Shown here piece by piece: positions 892-13,822 of a stretch of DNA of 16,547 nucleotides. Source of the stretch: Escherichia phage JLBYU27. Within the stretch, counting starts at the first letter, position 1, and the number at the start of each line of letters is the position of its first letter. Position numbers and translations under genes: made by a program. The notes under the pieces are model-generated. The model was not told the DNA's origin. It ran no database searches and worked only from the letters and a program-made list of their open reading frames with translations. Where the stretch lies: sequence record OK272475.1. The stretch is one strand, 5' to 3'.

Positions 892-921
892 TTGCATTGC
901 GGATGTTGGTTGCATTATATT
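892..921 (+). promoter_or_regulatory. sigma70-like promoter for the plus-strand clamp-like gene
   Basis: -35 TTGCAT (892-897), 18 bp spacer, -10 TATATT (916-921); leader GGTTGCGCACCAACAACGAGGAA contains the RBS. The same -35/-10 hexamers and a near-identical leader recur on the minus strand at 10679-10735. Confidence 0.4.
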
Positions 922-950
922 GGTTGCGCACCAACAACGAGGAAATGACA

Positions 951-1463
951 ATGATTAAAGTTAACTATGCCGATCTTAAAGCCGCTATGATGTGCGCCGC
1001 AACTAATGACGTGCGATACTATCTGAACGGTGTATTTTTCGACGAGAAAGGATTCATCGTGTCCACCGACGGACATCGCTTGTTCTGCGGGTCCGCGGTT
1101 GTTCCCGAAGGTGAAAGTAAAATAGTAGCAATTAAAGGCCGCTTACCTACTAAATTCGAATATTGCAACATAGACGGCACCTCCGCTGCGTTCTTTGATA
1201 GTAAAGACGTATTAATCGGTACCATACCCGTAGAGATCATAGACGGCCGATTCCCAGACTGGCGTAGATTTACGTCTTTCGACAGCGCTAAAGTGGAGGC
1301 TATAGGGTTTGCCGGGGTGTACCTGTCCGACGCCTGCAAAATTGCTAAATTGTTCGACCGTAAGTTTGATAGCTTAAAACTGGAATTTCAGGGAGTAGAC
1401 AAGGGGGCACGTGTGCTGTTCAAAGGCGGTGCCTTCCTTGTTATCATGCCGATGCGCTTGTAG
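951..1463 (+). CDS. truncated DNA polymerase III beta sliding clamp (DnaN) homolog, domain II plus shortened domain III (170 aa)
   Basis: ATG at 951 with GAGGAA 7-8 nt upstream. Protein contains DVRYYLNG, TDGHRL and DGRFPDWRR and ends in VIMPMRL, matching conserved E. coli DnaN motifs as recalled (DVRYYLNG, TDGHRL, DGRFPDYRR, C-terminal VVMPMRL). No equivalent of DnaN domain I. Opposite strand to all neighbours, with its own promoter and a terminator. Confidence 0.75.
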   Translation: MIKVNYADLKAAMMCAATNDVRYYLNGVFFDEKGFIVSTDGHRLFCGSAVVPEGESKIVAIKGRLPTKFEYCNIDGTSAAFFDSKDVLIGTIPVEIIDGRFPDWRRFTSFDSAKVEAIGFAGVYLSDACKIAKLFDRKFDSLKLEFQGVDKGARVLFKGGAFLVIMPMRL

Positions 1464-4534: not shown

Positions 4535-5920
4535 TTAGTAGAAGTCTACGGTTGGAACAACGGCGATCGGTCGAATCACAGGGAACAGGTGCGCAACAGG
4601 ATAGCCCGCGGCGTCGTTCATGTGGTCCACACCGGCAGTTTTATCCGGCTCGCCTTTCTTCAGGTCATAAACCTGCTGTTCCAGACATTTCGCTAGTGTA
4701 GGGCATTTATCCAGGTTGACAAAATACTGGCGCACGCCCTTCGAGTTGCACATCATCGTATTCATCGCGATCAATCGGTCTTTCACTGGCGGGTTAACGC
4801 TGTCATATTCCACATTGAAGCCAGCATCTTCCAGTTGCGCGATATCGGACGACGACGCGTTGACCGTTTTGCGGGATTTTCCGCTGCTATCCGGGTAAAC
4901 GACTACCCTACCGGCGGCACAATGTTCGGGATAGCGCTCCTCGATCGCCTCAATCATAGCCGGGGTGTCAAACAGGTCCACGAATTCATCCACGGCGTGA
5001 ATCTCGTCGCGGAACTCCTTGTTCTCGGTGGTACGCTGCCGTCTTACATACACGACCGCCGCCATTTTCGTGACGTTAAAGTCCATACCGATAATCAGCG
5101 TGTCGTCCGGCTGCACTTCTTCGGTGCTGGCGTTCTCCTCGCGATTAAACATCTTGTACACCGCGCCCGACGTAAGGTTAACAAACAGGCCGTTCAGGTA
5201 CGCATCAATCAGGTTAGCCGGGTACTGACTGCGAAGCGTGTCGATAAAGTCTGCTGGTAAATGGTGGTTGTCTGTGGTCTTCGCCCGGATCAAGCGTTTC
5301 TGGCTGTCCTTCTCCACCTCGAAAATTTGGTACATCGCCCGGTAGCCTTCAGGCGTTGACACGATGACGAACTGGCGGACGAAGCCCGCACGCAGACGAC
5401 CTAGCAGTTTGTGATATGCCGCCAGCGCGACGTCTTGTTTCGTGGTGTCGAACTCGTCGGCAACAATCCACGCGGCGTTGACCCCGATCAGGCGGGTATA
5501 GTTCTCCATTGATTCACAGATCACGCGGGTCCATTTGCCTTTCACCAGAACGCTATAGATCTTGTCCTGCTTGTTGAACTTCCACCGGAAGCCAGCCTCG
5601 TCGAAAGCCTTTTCCAATTCCGGATACATGATTTTAACCAGGAGTGGAATAGTCGGTTCGGTAACGATGCCGTCATGACCTGGGTTCAGTGTGAGAAGCT
5701 GGATTACCTTACGGGCTGCGACCCATGACTTGCCGCCGCCGAAGCCGGAGCACAGGCCGAGGATTTTAGTCTTCGTGTCCCGTAGTAGTTCGACCTGGTG
5801 CGGTAGGCAATCAGGCTGGTAAAGACGCACCGCCTGCGCAACGCGCGTAGGGCGTGGCGGTCGGTTGCGCTTTGCGATCGCGCGCTCCAGTGCGCGGTGT
5901 TCTGCCGCATAGTTACGCAT
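4535..5920 (-). CDS. terL: terminase large subunit (461 aa)
   Basis: Walker A-like LGLCSGFGGGKS and Walker B-like WIVADEFD in the N-terminal ATPase region; C-terminal nuclease-like region (LIIGMDFN ...). Start ATG at 5920 overlaps the terS stop (TAATG). Confidence 0.9.
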   Translation of the reverse strand: MRNYAAEHRALERAIAKRNRPPRPTRVAQAVRLYQPDCLPHQVELLRDTKTKILGLCSGFGGGKSWVAARKVIQLLTLNPGHDGIVTEPTIPLLVKIMYPELEKAFDEAGFRWKFNKQDKIYSVLVKGKWTRVICESMENYTRLIGVNAAWIVADEFDTTKQDVALAAYHKLLGRLRAGFVRQFVIVSTPEGYRAMYQIFEVEKDSQKRLIRAKTTDNHHLPADFIDTLRSQYPANLIDAYLNGLFVNLTSGAVYKMFNREENASTEEVQPDDTLIIGMDFNVTKMAAVVYVRRQRTTENKEFRDEIHAVDEFVDLFDTPAMIEAIEERYPEHCAAGRVVVYPDSSGKSRKTVNASSSDIAQLEDAGFNVEYDSVNPPVKDRLIAMNTMMCNSKGVRQYFVNLDKCPTLAKCLEQQVYDLKKGEPDKTAGVDHMNDAAGYPVAHLFPVIRPIAVVPTVDFY

Positions 5921-6492
5921 TAATCACCCTGACCTTTGCCGGTAGGTTCCACAACGACGTCGCCGTTATCATCTTCGTCGTCATCCAGCGGTACATCGTC
6001 GCGGACGCCGTGGTTTGCTTTAAGCAGGAATGTAGCGAAGCCTGCCGCGATGGTCACGCCGCCAGCTTCCATCAGGAAGGTTTTCTGCAGTTCCATAGCG
6101 TCCGCCATCGCCTCGGCGAACTCCTCATGTGCGCGCGCCCAGCGATACAGGCAAGCTACGCCCACACCGATTTCCGCGGCAAATCGTCCGAAGGTTGGCA
6201 TTTTGTTGCGAGGGATTACTTGCGCAGCGCCTTTATCGGAGTAGTTGACCTGCCAGGCGTCGGCGTCGGCAAAATAGCGGCGAAGCTGGTCGCAGTAAAC
6301 GGATCTGTAGTCAGTAGGGCGCCCACATTTGCCACCTTTACGGCGCTTGCCATACTCGATCTCGGGTCCAAGATTGGTGTGTTCTGTTTGCTCGCCTGGT
6401 TTACGGCGCGGGGTTACTGCTACTCGTCCGTCCAGTTTGGCGCGTCGGCCCTTAACTTTGATTTCTGCCATGATATAAGCCCTTTTGTTCAT
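5920..6492 (-). CDS. terS: terminase small subunit (about 190 aa)
   Basis: Translationally coupled to terL. Contains the HTH-like block TFGRFAAEIGVGVACLYRWARAHEEFAEAMADAMELQKTFL typical of small terminase subunits. Start taken as ATG 6492; ATG 6471 (AAGGG RBS) is an alternative; the ORF-track start at 6570 is a non-ATG codon and less likely. Confidence 0.7.
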   Translation of the reverse strand: MNKRAYIMAEIKVKGRRAKLDGRVAVTPRRKPGEQTEHTNLGPEIEYGKRRKGGKCGRPTDYRSVYCDQLRRYFADADAWQVNYSDKGAAQVIPRNKMPTFGRFAAEIGVGVACLYRWARAHEEFAEAMADAMELQKTFLMEAGGVTIAAGFATFLLKANHGVRDDVPLDDDEDDNGDVVVEPTGKGQGD

Positions 6493-6541
6493 ATGCGCCG
6501 ACCATCGGCAACATAGGAGACGGCCCTGCCATCTAATGGGG

Positions 6542-6575
6542 ATTATAACAGGCGCAAAAAAGCCCACCAAATCGG
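6542..6575 (-). promoter_or_regulatory. candidate promoter for terS overlapping the upstream terminator
   Basis: Perfect -10 TATAAT on minus strand (complement of 6542-6547), 17 bp spacer, weak -35 TTGGTG. Confidence 0.3.
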
Positions 6576-6580
6576 CAGGC
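6556..6580 (-). terminator. putative rho-independent terminator after the metallophosphoesterase gene
   Basis: On minus strand: GCCUGCC-GAUUU-GGUGGGC followed by UUUUUU (stem includes two G.U pairs). Lies 22 nt after the stop at 6602. Confidence 0.4.
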
Positions 6581-6601
6581 TGGGAGGATTACGGGTTGCC
6601 G

Positions 6602-7744
6602 TTACTTCAACATTTCCGGGCTAATGGTTAAGCGCGCTACTTCGCCGTAGTTGGCGCTATAGGTAATGACGTTGGCACTACGACCGGACATCCAACCACC
6701 GCGGCTGGCGTAGGCGTCTTTCGCTGCGAGGGTCCGGTGCTGTTCAACAATCATGTTACGGGATTCTACAATCTTCTGGTGGTGCAAGTGGCCTACGTGC
6801 GCGTAGCTGTACTCACTGGCCCCGAAAGCCTGTCTGAATTTAGAAATCATGACGGTTTCGATAGCGTCAAAGCGCGCTTTATGCCCGTGGTGGAAAAATA
6901 GCGTGGTCTTGCCGTGCTGCACCATTTTGTAGACGTCCGGGGACGTATCCACATCGACGCGCGGCTCGTTCTCGTACAGCGTGTTGAACATCTCAGCAAG
7001 CCAAATCATGCCCGACTCATCATGATTCCCCTGGACGATTAGCAGTTTGACTTTGTGGTGTTTTTGCAGGGCAAGTTCGACGACGTTGCGCACCATGCGA
7101 ATCATGTATCGGACCAGTTTCTGGTATCGGGTGTCCGCGTCCAGTATGTGACCACTTGCCGGAGTGACAGCATCGAGGCTATCAAAGTGGGCCATATCAC
7201 CGAGGATATTAATTACGGCAGTGCCTGCGTCCGGGGCGCGGGCGAAGGCTTCGACAAACCAGCGGTAGAACAGGTCTTCGGCTATCGCCATATCCCAGTC
7301 TTCGCCAGTCTCCTCGCCCCATGCCAACATGCCCAGGTGGAAGTCTGACACGGTGTACAGGTTGAGTAAGTCGAGCGCCTGGATCGGTACTGGCGGGGCG
7401 TTTACTGGCGCTGCCGGTGTGATTTCGCTGTTCATACCCTCGACAACAGCGCGCATAGCTTCGAGTTGGCGCTCCTTGTCCTGCTCAGTGATAACCCACG
7501 ACATGACCTCTTCGCCATTGCCGCGCACCAGGGCCGATACGCGCTTAACGCCGAAGCCATCGGCAACGCGCTGGCGGATTACGGCGTCGTTGCCGTGCCC
7601 AATTCCTTTTTTCGATAGGCGGGCTTTCCGCATGTAGACGTTTCGGAGGGACAAACCGTACTTCTTAGAAATCTCTTTCGATGTAGCGCCGGATTGTAAT
7701 TCAGCAATCAATTGCTCGTCTGTGATTTTAGTTTGCGGGTGCAT
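6602..7744 (-). CDS. HTH domain fused to a calcineurin-like metallophosphoesterase (380 aa)
   Basis: ATG at 7744 with AGGAAG RBS 6 nt upstream. N-terminal HTH-like segment (TSKEISKKYGLSLRNVYMRKARLSKKG). Metallophosphatase signature motifs in order: DFHLG, GDMAHF, GNHDE, HHGHK, GHLHH. Own promoter and flanking terminators. Confidence 0.75.
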   Translation of the reverse strand: MHPQTKITDEQLIAELQSGATSKEISKKYGLSLRNVYMRKARLSKKGIGHGNDAVIRQRVADGFGVKRVSALVRGNGEEVMSWVITEQDKERQLEAMRAVVEGMNSEITPAAPVNAPPVPIQALDLLNLYTVSDFHLGMLAWGEETGEDWDMAIAEDLFYRWFVEAFARAPDAGTAVINILGDMAHFDSLDAVTPASGHILDADTRYQKLVRYMIRMVRNVVELALQKHHKVKLLIVQGNHDESGMIWLAEMFNTLYENEPRVDVDTSPDVYKMVQHGKTTLFFHHGHKARFDAIETVMISKFRQAFGASEYSYAHVGHLHHQKIVESRNMIVEQHRTLAAKDAYASRGGWMSGRSANVITYSANYGEVARLTISPEMLK

Positions 7745-7769
7745 AATTACTTCCTGATTATGGGACCGG

Positions 7770-7805
7770 GGACAATATATCACGGGACTTATCGAGGCGG
7801 GCAAT
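7770..7805 (-). promoter_or_regulatory. extended -10 promoter-like element for the metallophosphoesterase gene
   Basis: Minus strand reads CGTGATATATT (TG-n-TATATT) flanked by GTCCCG / GTCCCCGG motifs; possible weak -35 TTGCCC 19 bp upstream. Confidence 0.35.
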
Positions 7806-7830
7806 AAAAAGCCCGGATAATACCGGGCTT
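7802..7830 (-). terminator. rho-independent terminator ending the lysis operon
   Basis: 8 bp stem AAGCCCGG / CCGGGCTT with 6 nt loop; on minus strand followed by TTTTTATT. Located 7 nt after the stop of the 55-aa ORF. Confidence 0.7.
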
Positions 7831-7836
7831 GATTGT

Positions 7837-8004
7837 TTACGCTGCAGGACCAGATTCTTCCTGCGGTGGTGGGCTTGGCAGCTTCGCATCGAAGACCCCA
7901 GCGTGGCTGATAGTGTCCGCGATGATAGCGCGTGCCCCAGGATCTTCGGTTTTAGCCAGTGCGGCAAGCGCGTCCGCATTATGATCAAGAATACTTTTCA
8001 ACAT
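7837..8004 (-). CDS. hypothetical small protein (55 aa) downstream of endolysin
   Basis: ATG at 8004 with GAGGGGA RBS about 7 nt upstream. No TM segment or lipobox, so not a spanin. The longer ORF-track form (to 8241) would overlap the endolysin gene and is not favoured. Confidence 0.4.
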   Translation of the reverse strand: MLKSILDHNADALAALAKTEDPGARAIIADTISHAGVFDAKLPSPPPQEESGPAA

Positions 8005-8020
8005 ATCGTGTCCCCTCGTA

Positions 8021-8512
8021 TTATGCTGCGTTACGACCGATTCGCTCGGCAACGTCCCACTGCTTACCGTCAAACAACGCCTGTCTGCCGATTGCACGAC
8101 GGACAAGCCCCTTAAGCACTGCCCCGCCTTGCTTGCGGAATTGTGGCAGTGTAGCCCGGACTTTTGCCCAGTCACCCAGGCGGACAGCATCGTCGAAGTC
8201 ACCGGCGACGTCGTCCGGCATGATCGGACCAGGGCCTGCATTGATGACCAGATCCACCAGCGCGTCGAATTGCGCTTGATTAATGCTCGGATGTGCGTAT
8301 TTGTTCACCCAGTCCTCGGCATACGCCACATCGCGCTTGAGCAGTGCCAGCGCTTCCTCGCGGGTAATGCTTCTAGGCGGATTAGTGCCAGTATGACCAT
8401 AACCCCAGGTGTACAGGCCGCGGGCCTGCTCTTTCTTGGTCGCGAAATATGGCACCGGGCTGAAAGCCTCCCAGGCTGCCGTAAATCGTAGACCGTTATC
8501 ACTGAATCGCAT
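8021..8512 (-). CDS. endolysin, phage lysozyme (163 aa)
   Basis: ATG at 8512. Lysozyme-like N-terminal block (LYTWGYGHTG) and C-terminal RRAIGRQALF resembling lambdoid phage lysozymes. Immediately follows holin-like genes. Confidence 0.8.
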   Translation of the reverse strand: MRFSDNGLRFTAAWEAFSPVPYFATKKEQARGLYTWGYGHTGTNPPRSITREEALALLKRDVAYAEDWVNKYAHPSINQAQFDALVDLVINAGPGPIMPDDVAGDFDDAVRLGDWAKVRATLPQFRKQGGAVLKGLVRRAIGRQALFDGKQWDVAERIGRNAA

Positions 8513-8744
8513 GTTTTACCCCATTCAAAACAGCATTACGCAGGGTGCGCAATGCAAACAGCCAGATTAACGCGGTCCAGGTGGTATCAGACACGTCTCC
8601 TGTTTGCAGCAACCCGATAAAACAGACCATTGCCGTTAACAGATACAGCACCCGACCGAAAATGCCATCCTGGACGGACGGCGCATACACGTTAAACAGG
8701 GACGAAGCCCCTATGATAACAAACAACAGGACGGAGATAATCAT
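8499..8744 (-). CDS. small membrane protein in lysis cassette (holin-like / antiholin candidate, 81 aa)
   Basis: ATG at 8744 overlaps the holin stop (ATGA); 2-3 predicted hydrophobic helices; overlaps the endolysin start by 14 nt. Confidence 0.5.
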   Translation of the reverse strand: MIISVLLFVIIGASSLFNVYAPSVQDGIFGRVLYLLTAMVCFIGLLQTGDVSDTTWTALIWLFALRTLRNAVLNGVKHAIQ

Positions 8745-10740: not shown

Positions 10741-10945
10741 ATTAATCACGCGTATGAAAAAGTTGATCGCTATCTGCTGAAACTGCAAACTGCATTTTTC
10801 ACTTTCCATTCTGCATCGCGCATTGGTTGCCGAGTTCATCGCCGACCGCAATTTGCATCATGTTGCCGTGGATTATGCAATCCCGGATTTTATGCAGTCT
10901 CAGACGAGGGGGGTGACAGACCCCCCGTCTAGTCTGAAAGACTGG

Positions 10946-11210
10946 GGTGCTGTCCCGCTGTCCCGATCGGCTAAACCCCGCGGCAGCACTGGCGGGGACA
11001 GGGTGCTGTCCCGCTTTGTCCCGCCCCTGGTCTGTCCCGCTTTTTGTCCCGCTTAGTTTATGCACGAAAACAGAATAGATATTCACATTTTGGGGGTGGG
11101 ACAGATCGGGACAGCACCCCTGTCCCGTTTTTAATTTATGCAATGTTGGTGGGTAAATATGCAGTTTTTAGAGGTGCGGGATAGAACGGGACAAAACGGG
11201 ACGTCCCGCC
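10946..11210. repeat. iteron-like array of at least 12 copies of TGTCCCGC / GCGGGACA in both orientations
   Basis: Forward copies at about 10951, 10959, 11007, 11017, 11033, 11045, 11121; inverted copies at about 10993, 11097, 11106, 11176, 11186; a perfect 12 bp palindrome CGGGACGTCCCG at 11197-11208. Longer unit GGTGCTGTCCCGC recurs three times. Interspersed AT-rich TTTATGCA motifs. One hairpin CGGGACAG-caccc-CTGTCCCG is followed by TTTTT. Confidence 0.8.
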
Positions 11211-11222
11211 TGTACCGCTTCG

Positions 11223-11547
11223 TTATGCGGGGTTCTGCCGCGCCATTTCATCCAGCGCAACGCGTTCCATTAGCTTGATATCTTTAAACGCACGTTGCGC
11301 GTTTTCGATGCCGTGCATCTTAAATAGCCATTCCAGTACGCCGTAGTCGATGCCGTATGCGCCGCCGAATCCGGTACGCCATTGCGTGGCGCAATCGGTG
11401 AAGACTGCGACTATCTTCGCATTGTCGGGCCATATTGCAACAGGCGGACAAACATCTTCGGGGGCCGCACCCCATAAACTTGCGGCTAAATCTTCGGAGG
11501 GTGGCGGCGGGCCATAAAAGCGTCGCGCCGCCTCAATTAGTTTTTTT
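11223..11547 (-). CDS. -1 frameshift extension of the tail assembly chaperone (GT-like T domain, about 107 codons)
   Basis: A7 slippery run (plus-strand T7 at 11541-11547) lies immediately before the G-gene stop; by hand translation the -1 frame stays open from there to a TAA at 11225..11223 (KKLIEAARRFYGPPPPSEDLAASLWGAAPEDV ... KLMERVALDEMARQNPA). Confidence 0.5.
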
Positions 11548-12694: not shown

Positions 12695-12749
12695 AATATC
12701 CTCCTAAATCAATAGATTACAGTATTTGCAGCCTGAGACATTTCAGGTC

Positions 12750-12778
12750 TTGACTAATCATACCACCAACGGTACTAT
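12750..12778 (+). promoter_or_regulatory. sigma70-like promoter for the plus-strand HNH-like gene
   Basis: -35 TTGACT (12750-12755), 17 bp spacer, -10 TACTAT (12773-12778); GGAG RBS at 12801 and ATG at 12810. Confidence 0.4.
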
Positions 12779-12809
12779 CCACAAAAATCGTTAATCAACT
12801 GGAGCGGAT

Positions 12810-13403
12810 ATGCGTAAAGGCATTCTTTTCGAAGGCATGACATTTAGAGGCGTTACTTTGTTGCGTAAAGGGCCAGGCCTTAAGTGGTTCTGTTCTTGCC
12901 CCGTATGCGGAAGCGAGACACTTCGCACTAACGGCGCACTATTGGATTTTATGCGAGGCGAAACACTGCGCTGGGTATGTACTTGTTTCGGCAAGAAATC
13001 TCGACACGGAATGACGGGGACGCCAACAATGATTACATGGGAAGGTATGATTCAGCGATGCCACAACCCCAATGCGACTAAATACGAAATATATGGCGGT
13101 CGAGGGATTACGGTGTGTGACCGCTGGCGAGTATTCAAGAACTTCCTGGAAGATATGGGCTTGCGGCCCGCCGGAGCAACCCTTGATAGAATCGACAGTA
13201 ACGGCAACTATGAGCCAGGTAATTGCCGGTGGGCATCCCAAAAAGACCAAACCGAAAACACTCGTAGGATTGTCCGAGTTATATATGAGGGGCGTGAATA
13301 TTGTCTTAAGGAAGCGTGCAAGGCGGCGGGCGTGAATTATGACACTATTAGAAAGAAATGGAAAAAAAGCGGGGAAATGTTCCACCGCTTTGAGATGATT
13401 TAA
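12810..13403 (+). CDS. HNH/AP2-family homing-endonuclease-like DNA-binding protein with N-terminal Cys-rich zinc-ribbon-like segment (197 aa)
   Basis: Contains the W..M..RC.NPN...Y..YGGRGI.VCDRW..F..F..DMG ... LDRID..GNYEP.NCRWA motif block that I recall from phage HNH/AP2-type homing endonuclease-like proteins; N-terminal CSCPVCG ... CTCFG. Opposite strand to the flanking tail genes; its stop overlaps the stop of the convergent U-like gene (TTAA). Confidence 0.55.
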   Translation: MRKGILFEGMTFRGVTLLRKGPGLKWFCSCPVCGSETLRTNGALLDFMRGETLRWVCTCFGKKSRHGMTGTPTMITWEGMIQRCHNPNATKYEIYGGRGITVCDRWRVFKNFLEDMGLRPAGATLDRIDSNGNYEPGNCRWASQKDQTENTRRIVRVIYEGREYCLKEACKAAGVNYDTIRKKWKKSGEMFHRFEMI

Positions 13404-13822
13404 GCGCAACAGGTGTAGGGGACTGTAACCACGATGCGGGCGCGATCAACGTCCTCAACCACTGAACTGGTGTATGGCGCGTCCTGAAGCTGGAATGCAG
13501 CGCCGGAAATCTTTACCGTCAACCACTTATCCGACGTAGCGATGGCGTCCGCCAGTTCGCTCGCGTACTGTGTACCCGTGCCTGCAGGGAACACCACGGC
13601 AACCTGATATACGCCTGCATAGATTCTCCCCTTTTGCTGGAGGCCCACAAACTGGGTCGGGGCCGGTAGCAGGTACGGCTCCAGGTAGACACCACTCCCG
13701 TTTGCGTGGTCCCCTTGCACGTTCTCCCAGTTAACCTTGATCGGCCGCGGGCTTGTGCTTAGGCTCGCCGATAACTCTTCTACCACGCTGTTAAGCGCTT
13801 TGCGGATTGCGGTATTGCTCAT
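13400..13822 (-). CDS. putative tail terminator / tail completion protein (lambda U-position, 140 aa)
   Basis: ATG at 13822 overlapping the upstream stop (TAATG); size and position immediately upstream of the major tail gene. Assignment by synteny only. Confidence 0.4.
   Translation of the reverse strand: MSNTAIRKALNSVVEELSASLSTSPRPIKVNWENVQGDHANGSGVYLEPYLLPAPTQFVGLQQKGRIYAGVYQVAVVFPAGTGTQYASELADAIATSDKWLTVKISGAAFQLQDAPYTSSVVEDVDRARIVVTVPYTCCA

Follow-up and report, generated by a model that had tools for sequence, protein, structure and literature searches.

The phosphoesterase gene and its transcription signals

The window analyzed here is a 16,547-nt stretch of DNA from Escherichia phage JLBYU27 (sequence record OK272475.1). 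Between its lysis genes and the packaging gene terS lies a coding sequence for a protein of 380 amino acids (aa) that joins an N-terminal helix-turn-helix (HTH) to a calcineurin-like metallophosphoesterase core and belongs to PHROG 704, the family of coliphage T1 gp16. The gene (7744 (ATG)..6602 (stop), 1143 nt) is carried on the minus strand, a correction to a preliminary description of the locus. A Shine-Dalgarno sequence, AGGAAG (7755-7750, minus strand), lies 5 nt upstream of the ATG and is found as AGGAAg/t in all seven of the Dhillonvirus genomes that were aligned for the conservation of promoters and terminators. A longer reading frame from an alternative TTG start at 7804 would overlap both the promoter and the terminator upstream of the gene, and every annotated Dhillonvirus homolog is 1143 nt in length.

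Upstream, the lysis cluster is closed by a hairpin terminator (7830..7809, minus strand) with an 8-bp stem that includes 6 GC pairs, followed by the tail TTTTTATT; the stem scores on the plus strand as well, and this terminator was found in three of the seven aligned genomes. Downstream, 20 nt past the phosphoesterase stop codon, a second hairpin (6581..6561, minus strand) has a 9-bp stem and a TTTTTT tail. The region from 5800 to 8600 holds 8 terminator-like matches against 3.2 ± 2.0 in shuffled sequences, and these two hairpins are among those with the longest stems. Two extended −10 elements were read from the sequence, both on the minus strand: TGaTATATT (7782..7774), the predicted promoter of the phosphoesterase gene itself, and TGtTATAAT (6550..6542), which is predicted to serve the terS unit (terS ATG at 6471, product matching phrog_3064) and marks the downstream limit of the single-gene unit. 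Neither is accompanied by a good −35 sequence, and both are therefore missed by a scanner for −35/−10 pairs; in the case of the phosphoesterase promoter, the TTGCCC at 7804-7799 would require a 19-nt spacer.

The block TGrTATATTGTCC...TAATCAGGAAnTAAT...ATG is retained in all seven Dhillonviruses, including four in which the DNA farther upstream is unrelated. The downstream terminator and TGTTATAAT are retained in six of the seven, as is the terS −10 element. The seventh genome, that of WF5505, has an extra small overlapping open reading frame (ORF) ahead of its own annotated terminator, and a different annotated terminator directly upstream of its phosphoesterase promoter. The conserved promoter block and the flanking terminators thus bear out the earlier description of an insulated unit, with its own extended −10 element, bounded by the lysis terminator on one side and by a terminator and promoter pair before terS on the other. 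From these signals, the phosphoesterase gene is predicted to be a single-gene transcription unit in the JLBYU27 genome.

Several small ORFs adjoin this unit in JLBYU27 or its relatives. Ahead of the upstream terminator, the lysis cluster ends in a conserved 55-aa ORF (7837-8004, minus strand) that matches phrog_11068, of unknown function, and a 134-aa ORF (7837-8241) that overlaps the endolysin gene is probably not real. The WF5505 unit contains two extra ORFs (L053:1280-1453 / L053:2640-2852) with no counterpart in the window, one of 57 aa between two annotated terminators upstream and one of 70 aa (phrog_20931) that overlaps the phosphoesterase stop codon. A conserved small partner gene 3' of the phosphoesterase was considered and rejected, as the ~70-76-aa ORFs found in WF5505, the Jersey-like Salmonella phage SE479 and the podovirus J8-65 are mutually unrelated.

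Domain architecture and the PHROG 704 family

The domain layout of the protein was taken from an AlphaFold2 model (mean predicted local distance difference test (pLDDT) 90.8, predicted template modeling score 0.77) made with an alignment of 51 relatives of 32-48% identity, which came out of a search across 1.84 billion cluster representatives. From the N terminus, the model consists of a three-helix bundle, a low-confidence linker, a beta-hairpin with a helix, a proline-rich linker and a compact core. The bundle is the predicted HTH (aa 9-45, 7610..7720, minus strand), with helices at residues 9-17, 22-29 and 33-45 and a pLDDT of ~90. The hairpin-helix segment (aa 60-105, 7430..7567, minus strand) is specific to the family; it is modeled with strands at 64-73 and 79-88 and a helix at 90-105 (pLDDT 74-80), and its residues G77 and W83 are nearly invariant among the relatives. 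After the proline-rich linker (aa 106-120), the metallophosphoesterase core, with motifs I to V, occupies aa 126-380 (6605..7369, minus strand) with a pLDDT of 92-98. The last elements of the model are core strands at 357-363 and 367-374 plus a helix of four residues, with nothing beyond residue 380.

All five of the metallophosphatase motifs named in the preliminary description are present: DFHLG (aa 134-138), GDMAHF (aa 182-187), GNHDE (aa 239-243), HHGHK (aa 285-289) and GHLHH (aa 318-322). They follow the calcineurin-like order DxH, GD, GNH[DE], H and GHxH through D134-x-H136, G182-D183, G239-N240-H241-D242, H286 and G318-H319-x-H321. The active-site columns align across the family, with D134, H136, G182, D183, T194, N240, H241, H286, G318 and H321 invariant in the 51-sequence alignment and G239, D242 and H319 nearly so; the canonical metal-ligand positions of calcineurin-like enzymes are included among the invariant columns.

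The HTH-like N terminus noted earlier is detected weakly in the JLBYU27 sequence by itself (GerE, E=0.024), and is clear both in the model and at the level of the family, where Pfam matches of the relatives reach 1.5e-9 for Sigma70_r4_2 and 2.4e-8 for GerE. The domains HTH_1, HTH_28, HTH_8 and HTH_23 each match several family members, and a search of the PDB with the family profile detected GerE at E=0.015. Divergence within the family is greatest over the first 40-80 residues, which match HTH families of many kinds, and the hairpin and core are conserved; to judge from the sequences, this would be in keeping with DNA targets or partners that differ between lineages. The JLBYU27 protein is ~15 residues shorter at its N terminus than most members of the family.

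The modeled core superposes on solved metallophosphoesterases, and the folds closest to it are those of PolD-DP1, Mre11 and SbcD, that is, the nuclease-like branch of the superfamily. Small-molecule metallophosphoesterases score nearly as high as these nucleases (LpxH 13.8, MJ0936 13.5, YfcE 12.7 and Rv0805 12.1), the cyclic nucleotide phosphodiesterase Rv0805 ranks second in Foldseek, and the margin of the nuclease branch in these model comparisons is too narrow to decide the substrate. Mre11 has GDLFH as its motif II, which shares the GDxxH form with motif II of the JLBYU27 protein. The Rad50/SbcC-binding helices of Mre11/SbcD are absent from the JLBYU27 model, and the OB fold of PolD DP1 is missing as well, the protein having an N-terminal HTH instead. 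Of the fold classes put forward in the preliminary description, the nuclease branch thus comes closest, whereas PPP-type phosphatase and canonical Mre11/SbcD do not hold up, on grounds given with the proposed function below. Other searches added little: the single protein retrieved solely spurious designed-repeat matches from the PDB, and NCBIfam yielded nothing meaningful (UhpA, E=0.037; PdeM, E=0.17).

The preliminary description placed the gene in a prophage and implied that it was rare, neither of which is upheld. About 150 records of virulent E. coli siphophages belonging to Dhillonvirus (the HK578, JL1 and YD-2008.s group) share 92-94% nucleotide identity with the JLBYU27 region, and the protein shares 99.5% identity with one deposited for phage UAE_MI-01 as a "hypothetical protein". 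It matches PHROG 704 ("DNA repair exonuclease") from end to end, with residues 5-380 aligned to positions 2-390 of the 390-column profile (E=4.9e-160). Tblastn retrieved 2,061 phage records, 1,669 of which cover at least 80% of the protein, with hosts that include Escherichia, Klebsiella, Salmonella, Vibrio and Campylobacter; the search of the cluster-representative library returned 4,647 matches at E≤0.001 and 1,131 at E≤1e-30. Members are found in Drexlerviridae, Dhillonvirus, Guernseyvirinae, some Autographiviridae, Ackermannviridae, Casjensviridae and lambdoid prophages, and are routinely annotated, with depositor labels of "phosphoesterase", "calcineurin-like phosphoesterase", "winged HTH protein", "DNA repair exonuclease" and "oxidoreductase". 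Coliphage T1 gp16 (ST16, YP_003929.1) is 45% identical over 377 aa, has the same domain order and invariant residues and, like the JLBYU27 gene, is followed directly by its own annotated terminator; the JLBYU27 protein differs from the T1 gp16 family only in genomic position and in its shorter N terminus, and in nothing of substance. Other homologs are J8-65 gp23 (Autographiviridae), annotated as similar to LIMEzero gp27, and the protein of phage VAP7 (Ackermannviridae). Neither the BASEL paper nor the CiPGr genome-reduction paper mentions the gene. Judged by its sequence, the JLBYU27 protein is highly conserved and an unexceptional member of a phage family that is very large and already catalogued.

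Genomic neighborhoods and the GTCCCG array

The location of the gene between the lysis genes and terS is specific to Dhillonvirus. Related loci were retrieved with an alignment of 8 sequences as the query, and all ORFs up to 6 kb from the gene were then surveyed at 131 loci, which fall into 38 lineages by single-linkage clustering of the phosphoesterase at 65% identity. In SE479, the gene lies within the tail genes in a small island on the opposite strand; in Webervirus it is followed by a HAD phosphatase, a deoxynucleoside monophosphate (dNMP) kinase and the lysis genes; in J8-65 it comes after an exonuclease and endonuclease VII, with a HAD phosphatase one gene further on; in VAP7 it precedes the primase; and in DSS3-P1 a dNMP phosphatase is found two genes after the homolog. 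Homologs are present at 43 loci in bacterial chromosomes. Those of Stutzerimonas stutzeri and Dyella halodurans sit in lambdoid prophages, where replication genes and a NinB or Q-like gene come before the homolog and lysis, HNH, terS and terL genes come after it.

The recurrent neighbors include endolysins of two clusters (6 and 4 of the 38 lineages), an HNH endonuclease (6 lineages), two terL families (5 lineages each), the dNMP kinase phrog_139 and the MazG-like phrog_801 (5 lineages each), NinG and NinB, as well as a HAD protein, phrog_415, that occurs in 5 of the 38 lineages and is usually directly adjacent. An ORF of ~75-91 aa resembling the C terminus of a nucleotide kinase (phrog_236, E=3e-25) is found in 8 lineages on the same strand, at a median of ~230 bp from the gene; it occurs at 40 loci in all (L115:4561-4836 and 39 others), none of them in the window. 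Counted together, a nucleotide-metabolism gene lies within 1.5 kb of the phosphoesterase in 10 of the 38 lineages, and terL lies up to 6 kb downstream in 7.

The phrog_415 genes (L003:4535-5149, L004:4794-5321, L067:9122-9610 and L008:4948-5478) bear the PHROG label "polynucleotide kinase". They follow or lie near the phosphoesterase in Webervirus, in J8-65 and in an IMG/VR contig encoding a phosphoesterase with 75% identity to that of JLBYU27; ST64 of T1 is also a phrog_415 protein, but is encoded elsewhere in the T1 genome. The Webervirus and J8-65 proteins consist of a HAD phosphatase domain alone (Pfam HAD_PNKP, E=7.5e-18 and 3.4e-15), and PHROG 415 includes T5 Dmp, which is annotated as a deoxynucleoside-5'-monophosphatase in the T5 record. 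The "kinase" label is therefore probably wrong for these genes. Pairwise BLAST similarity between the neighboring HAD proteins and Dmp is weak and confined to the DxDGT motif.

The preliminary description suggested that the HTH might bind GTCCCG-containing DNA, for which the evidence is weak. The exact GTCCCG at the phosphoesterase promoter (7783-7788) is not conserved in the genus, and a TGTCCnCGG sequence following the −10 element is partly conserved. Over the whole window, the 15 copies of GTCCCG do not represent a significant enrichment (10 ± 3 expected); the signal lies in local clustering, with 11 exact copies in ~260 bp. These belong to a dense TGTCCCG(C) array at 10940-11225 that also contains near-copies, in both orientations, together with TTTATGCA repeats and a hairpin terminator (11107-11127), and which resembles a set of iterons or operators. 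The UAE_MI-01 record has GTCCCG clusters at 19-269 and 16716-16811, the latter lying shortly downstream of the gene for the helicase-primase.

The core of the array is a repeat of ~130 bp that is present twice in the full 44-kb genome. Window positions 10933-11064 match UAE_MI-01 both at 1-132 and at 16698-16829, and the first and last positions of the window (1 and 16547) correspond to positions 4950 and 4949 of that record. From these coordinates, the window is not collinear with reference genomes and represents a 16.5-kb circle, rotated and joined through the ~130-bp direct repeat, from which ~27.7 kb of the phage genome is missing. The circle may be a repeat-bounded assembly artifact that was reported as a circular contig, or a sub-genomic circle derived by recombination, and the analysis of the phosphoesterase is unaffected in either case. 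Two opposite-strand ORFs elsewhere in the window also set it apart from UAE_MI-01. An HNH endonuclease ORF (12810-13403, plus strand; phrog_3377, E=5e-47) between the genes for the major tail protein and the tail terminator is missing at the UAE_MI-01 site, where window positions 12697-13404 correspond to 1753-1816, and was probably inserted as a mobile homing endonuclease. A RusA-like Holliday-junction resolvase ORF (897-1463, plus strand; phrog_3007, E=4e-54) lies in a variable region flanked by head scaffold and head-morphogenesis genes, and window positions 937-1462 have no match in UAE_MI-01.

Possible function of the phosphoesterase

We tentatively favor a reading in which the protein is a stand-alone, HTH-tethered DNA phosphodiesterase that serves in lytic growth for the breakdown of host DNA or the processing of DNA ends. 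The conserved two-metal site, the nuclease-like fold and the fused DNA-binding domain together favor a nucleic-acid substrate, as is also suggested by the HTH in itself, and we infer that this substrate is DNA. The catalytic core would act by itself as a two-metal DNA phosphodiesterase (nuclease), and the flexible linkers would join it to the N-terminal HTH, which would presumably hold the enzyme on DNA. Host sigma-70 RNA polymerase would transcribe the gene alone from the conserved extended −10 promoter, and since the gene has its own promoter and a terminator on either side, its expression could be independent of the lysis and packaging genes. The enzyme would then be expected to cleave or resect DNA in the course of lytic growth, either degrading host DNA to 5'-dNMPs that feed the nucleotide pool of the phage, or processing DNA ends and structures for replication and recombination. 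T4 and T5 couple the breakdown of host DNA to nucleotide handling, and the dNMP phosphatase, dNMP kinase and MazG-like neighbors seen in related phages fit an enzyme that converts DNA to mononucleotides. Further recurrent neighbors consistent with this role are NinB and NinG, exonuclease and endonuclease VII, and primase.

A functional precedent is the metallophosphoesterase Gp48 of mycobacteriophage A10ZJ24, which has phosphodiesterase activity and which, according to its authors, disrupts host genomic DNA, is expressed early and is required for phage replication in M. tuberculosis (PMC12287305, 2025). Like Bxb1 gp47 and L5 gp54, it is a phage metallophosphoesterase encoded among early or replication genes; these mycobacteriophage proteins differ from the JLBYU27 protein in their size of ~255 aa, in having no HTH and in the position of motif I at residue 10. 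Bxb1 gp47 was rejected as a member of the family, with an hhalign probability of 3.5% over 85 columns spanning motifs III to V, a similarity at the level of motifs alone. T5 A1 (L007:1706-3376), annotated in its record as a pre-early protein needed for the degradation of host DNA and for shut-off, offers a second comparison. Relatives that share 43-49% identity with A1 have Pfam HTH domains at the N terminus, as does the PHROG 704 family, and the residues invariant in the A1 family (D304/H306, D340, N396/H397/D398, H476 and H501/H503) appear in metallophosphoesterase order. A1 is also encoded two genes from Dmp, the phrog_415 kind of HAD protein that adjoins PHROG 704 genes in other phages. 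By its motifs, A1 may be a cryptic HTH-metallophosphoesterase analog. Homology was rejected, however: A1 has 556 aa, belongs to PHROG 1745 and lacks a Pfam match, the hhalign probability is 20% and confined to the HTH region, and hmmsearch matches a 16-residue NHD block only. The mycobacteriophage enzymes and A1 would at most share the superfamily with PHROG 704 and serve as functional analogies.

Several observations weigh against a DNA phosphodiesterase. The nucleotide-metabolism neighbors fit an enzyme of free nucleotides equally well, and the neighbor counts are only suggestive because the lineages are not phylogenetically independent. In the Dhillonviruses themselves, no HAD phosphatase or dNMP kinase is annotated (42.5 kb of the 44.6-kb YD-2008.s genome). 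The Pfam gathering scores are not reached by the JLBYU27 protein (20.0 against 21.5 bits for PF00149 and 22.2 against 27 for PF12850), and at E≤0.01 these domains match 10 and 6 of the 51 relatives, respectively; the protein therefore represents a divergent branch of the calcineurin-like superfamily. Sequence-profile similarity to Mre11/SbcD is slight, as the search of the PDB with the family profile returned HTH proteins and, apart from these, Thermotoga maritima SbcD/Mre11 alone, at E=0.34 over residues 133-199. The model has no Mre11-type C-terminal capping domain, and Rad50/SbcC is neither annotated in the window or in the same 42.5 kb of YD-2008.s nor found among the recurrent neighbors at the 131 loci. 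Without a capping domain or an annotated partner, a canonical Mre11-Rad50 machine is impossible. Finally, full-text literature searches found no biochemical or genetic work on any member of PHROG 704.

A phosphodiesterase or pyrophosphatase of free nucleotides, which would reshape the pool of (deoxy)nucleoside tri- and diphosphates in concert with the HAD phosphatase, dNMP kinase and MazG-like enzymes, or act in anti-defense by destroying cyclic or oligonucleotide immune signals, is the leading alternative but seems rather unlikely, although it draws on much of the same evidence: phrog_415, phrog_139 and phrog_801 genes directly adjoin the phosphoesterase in several lineages, and LpxH, MJ0936, YfcE and Rv0805 come near the nucleases in structural score. 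The pairing of a calcineurin-like enzyme with a HAD phosphatase also has a precedent in the PUA-Cal-HAD defense system, where the two form a dNTP-hydrolyzing cascade (bioRxiv 10.64898/2026.01.15.699771). The conserved N-terminal HTH is hard to reconcile with a small-molecule enzyme, however, and the protein has no nucleotide-sensing domain. PADLOC-DB 2.0 gave no match for the JLBYU27 protein, J8-65 gp23 or a prophage homolog, and for T1 gp16 a chance-level Cas6b match (E=0.049), and the HAD or kinase partner is not annotated in Dhillonviruses. The same HAD neighbors could be read as partners in the healing of broken RNA or DNA ends, with the phosphoesterase acting as a 2',3'-cyclic phosphodiesterase or 3'-phosphatase alongside a polynucleotide kinase-type HAD protein in the repair of tRNA or DNA that host defenses have damaged. 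Bacterial Pnkp uses a calcineurin-type phosphoesterase domain in end healing, and HAD_PNKP, matched by the adjacent proteins of Webervirus and J8-65, is the phosphatase domain of polynucleotide kinase-phosphatase. These neighbors have no kinase domain, no ligase is adjacent, and a HAD partner is not annotated in Dhillonvirus; their standing as evidence of RNA repair is further weakened by a PHROG that they share with the dNMP phosphatase T5 Dmp, and end healing is a quite improbable function.

Other readings turn on the HTH or on the position of the gene. It is unlikely, though conceivable, that the protein is a sequence-directed nuclease whose variable HTH, in Dhillonviruses, reads TGTCC(C)G at its own promoter and at the two ~130-bp arrays 16.7 kb apart, thereby sparing or processing phage DNA as host DNA is destroyed, in a takeover like that of T5 A1, or nicking an origin-like array; as a variant, a counter-defense nuclease might silence host immunity genes, as has been proposed for Gp48. 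Were it true, a function would be given to an uncharacterized gene in more than 1,600 phage records. Slightly less probable still is a DNA-binding regulator or architectural factor, perhaps autoregulatory, with its HTH on operators such as TGTCC(C)G and the phosphoesterase fold secondary. The partly conserved TGTCCnCGG just after the −10 element of its own promoter and the dense array of the same motif at 10940-11225 are in keeping with such a role. A parallel is offered by Bxb1 gp47, which has metallophosphoesterase motifs and acts as a recombination directionality factor; in the Bxb1 record, gp47 is named a metallo-phosphoesterase and the directionality label sits on the adjacent gp46. The invariance of the catalytic residues in 51 relatives argues for selection on catalysis, the promoter copy of GTCCCG varies within the genus, and the phage encodes other HTH proteins, such as the Sigma70_r4-like EpYD_55, with nothing that ties the phosphoesterase HTH to the motif. 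An accessory nuclease of packaging, working with terS and terL as do terminase-associated HNH endonucleases, was also raised in the preliminary description and is now very improbable. The gene is directly upstream of terS in Dhillonviruses, and the 7 lineages with terL downstream include lambdoid prophages that share the Dhillonvirus terL PHROGs; yet a terminator and a new promoter separate it from terS, the order of nin region, Q, lysis and packaging genes is generic in lambdoid phages, and in T1, the Jersey-like phage SE479, Webervirus, Autographiviridae and Ackermannviridae the gene is not beside the terminase and is far from or unrelated to packaging. Least credible, to the point of being barely plausible, is a PPP-type Ser/Thr/Tyr protein phosphatase like lambda NinI. 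NinI is of the same superfamily, and the prophages examined carry the PHROG 704 gene in or beside the nin/Q region, where lambda has ninI, but the PPP signatures GDxHG, GDxVDRG and GNHE are replaced in the JLBYU27 protein by SDFHLG, GDMAHFD and GNHDE, and PPP enzymes are not the closest structural neighbors of the model.

These findings add no new kind of system; their value lies in a more precise hypothesis, open to test, about an orphan family already known. PHROG 704 is among the more widespread accessory gene families of phages for which no functional study was found, with ~1,670 full-length copies in GenBank phage records and thousands more in metagenomes, and many of the phages that carry it are candidates for phage therapy against E. 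coli, Klebsiella and Salmonella. Knowing the role of its members, whether in host-DNA degradation, nucleotide-pool editing or counter-defense, would improve an annotation that now ranges from "oxidoreductase" to "DNA repair exonuclease", and would inform phage engineering.

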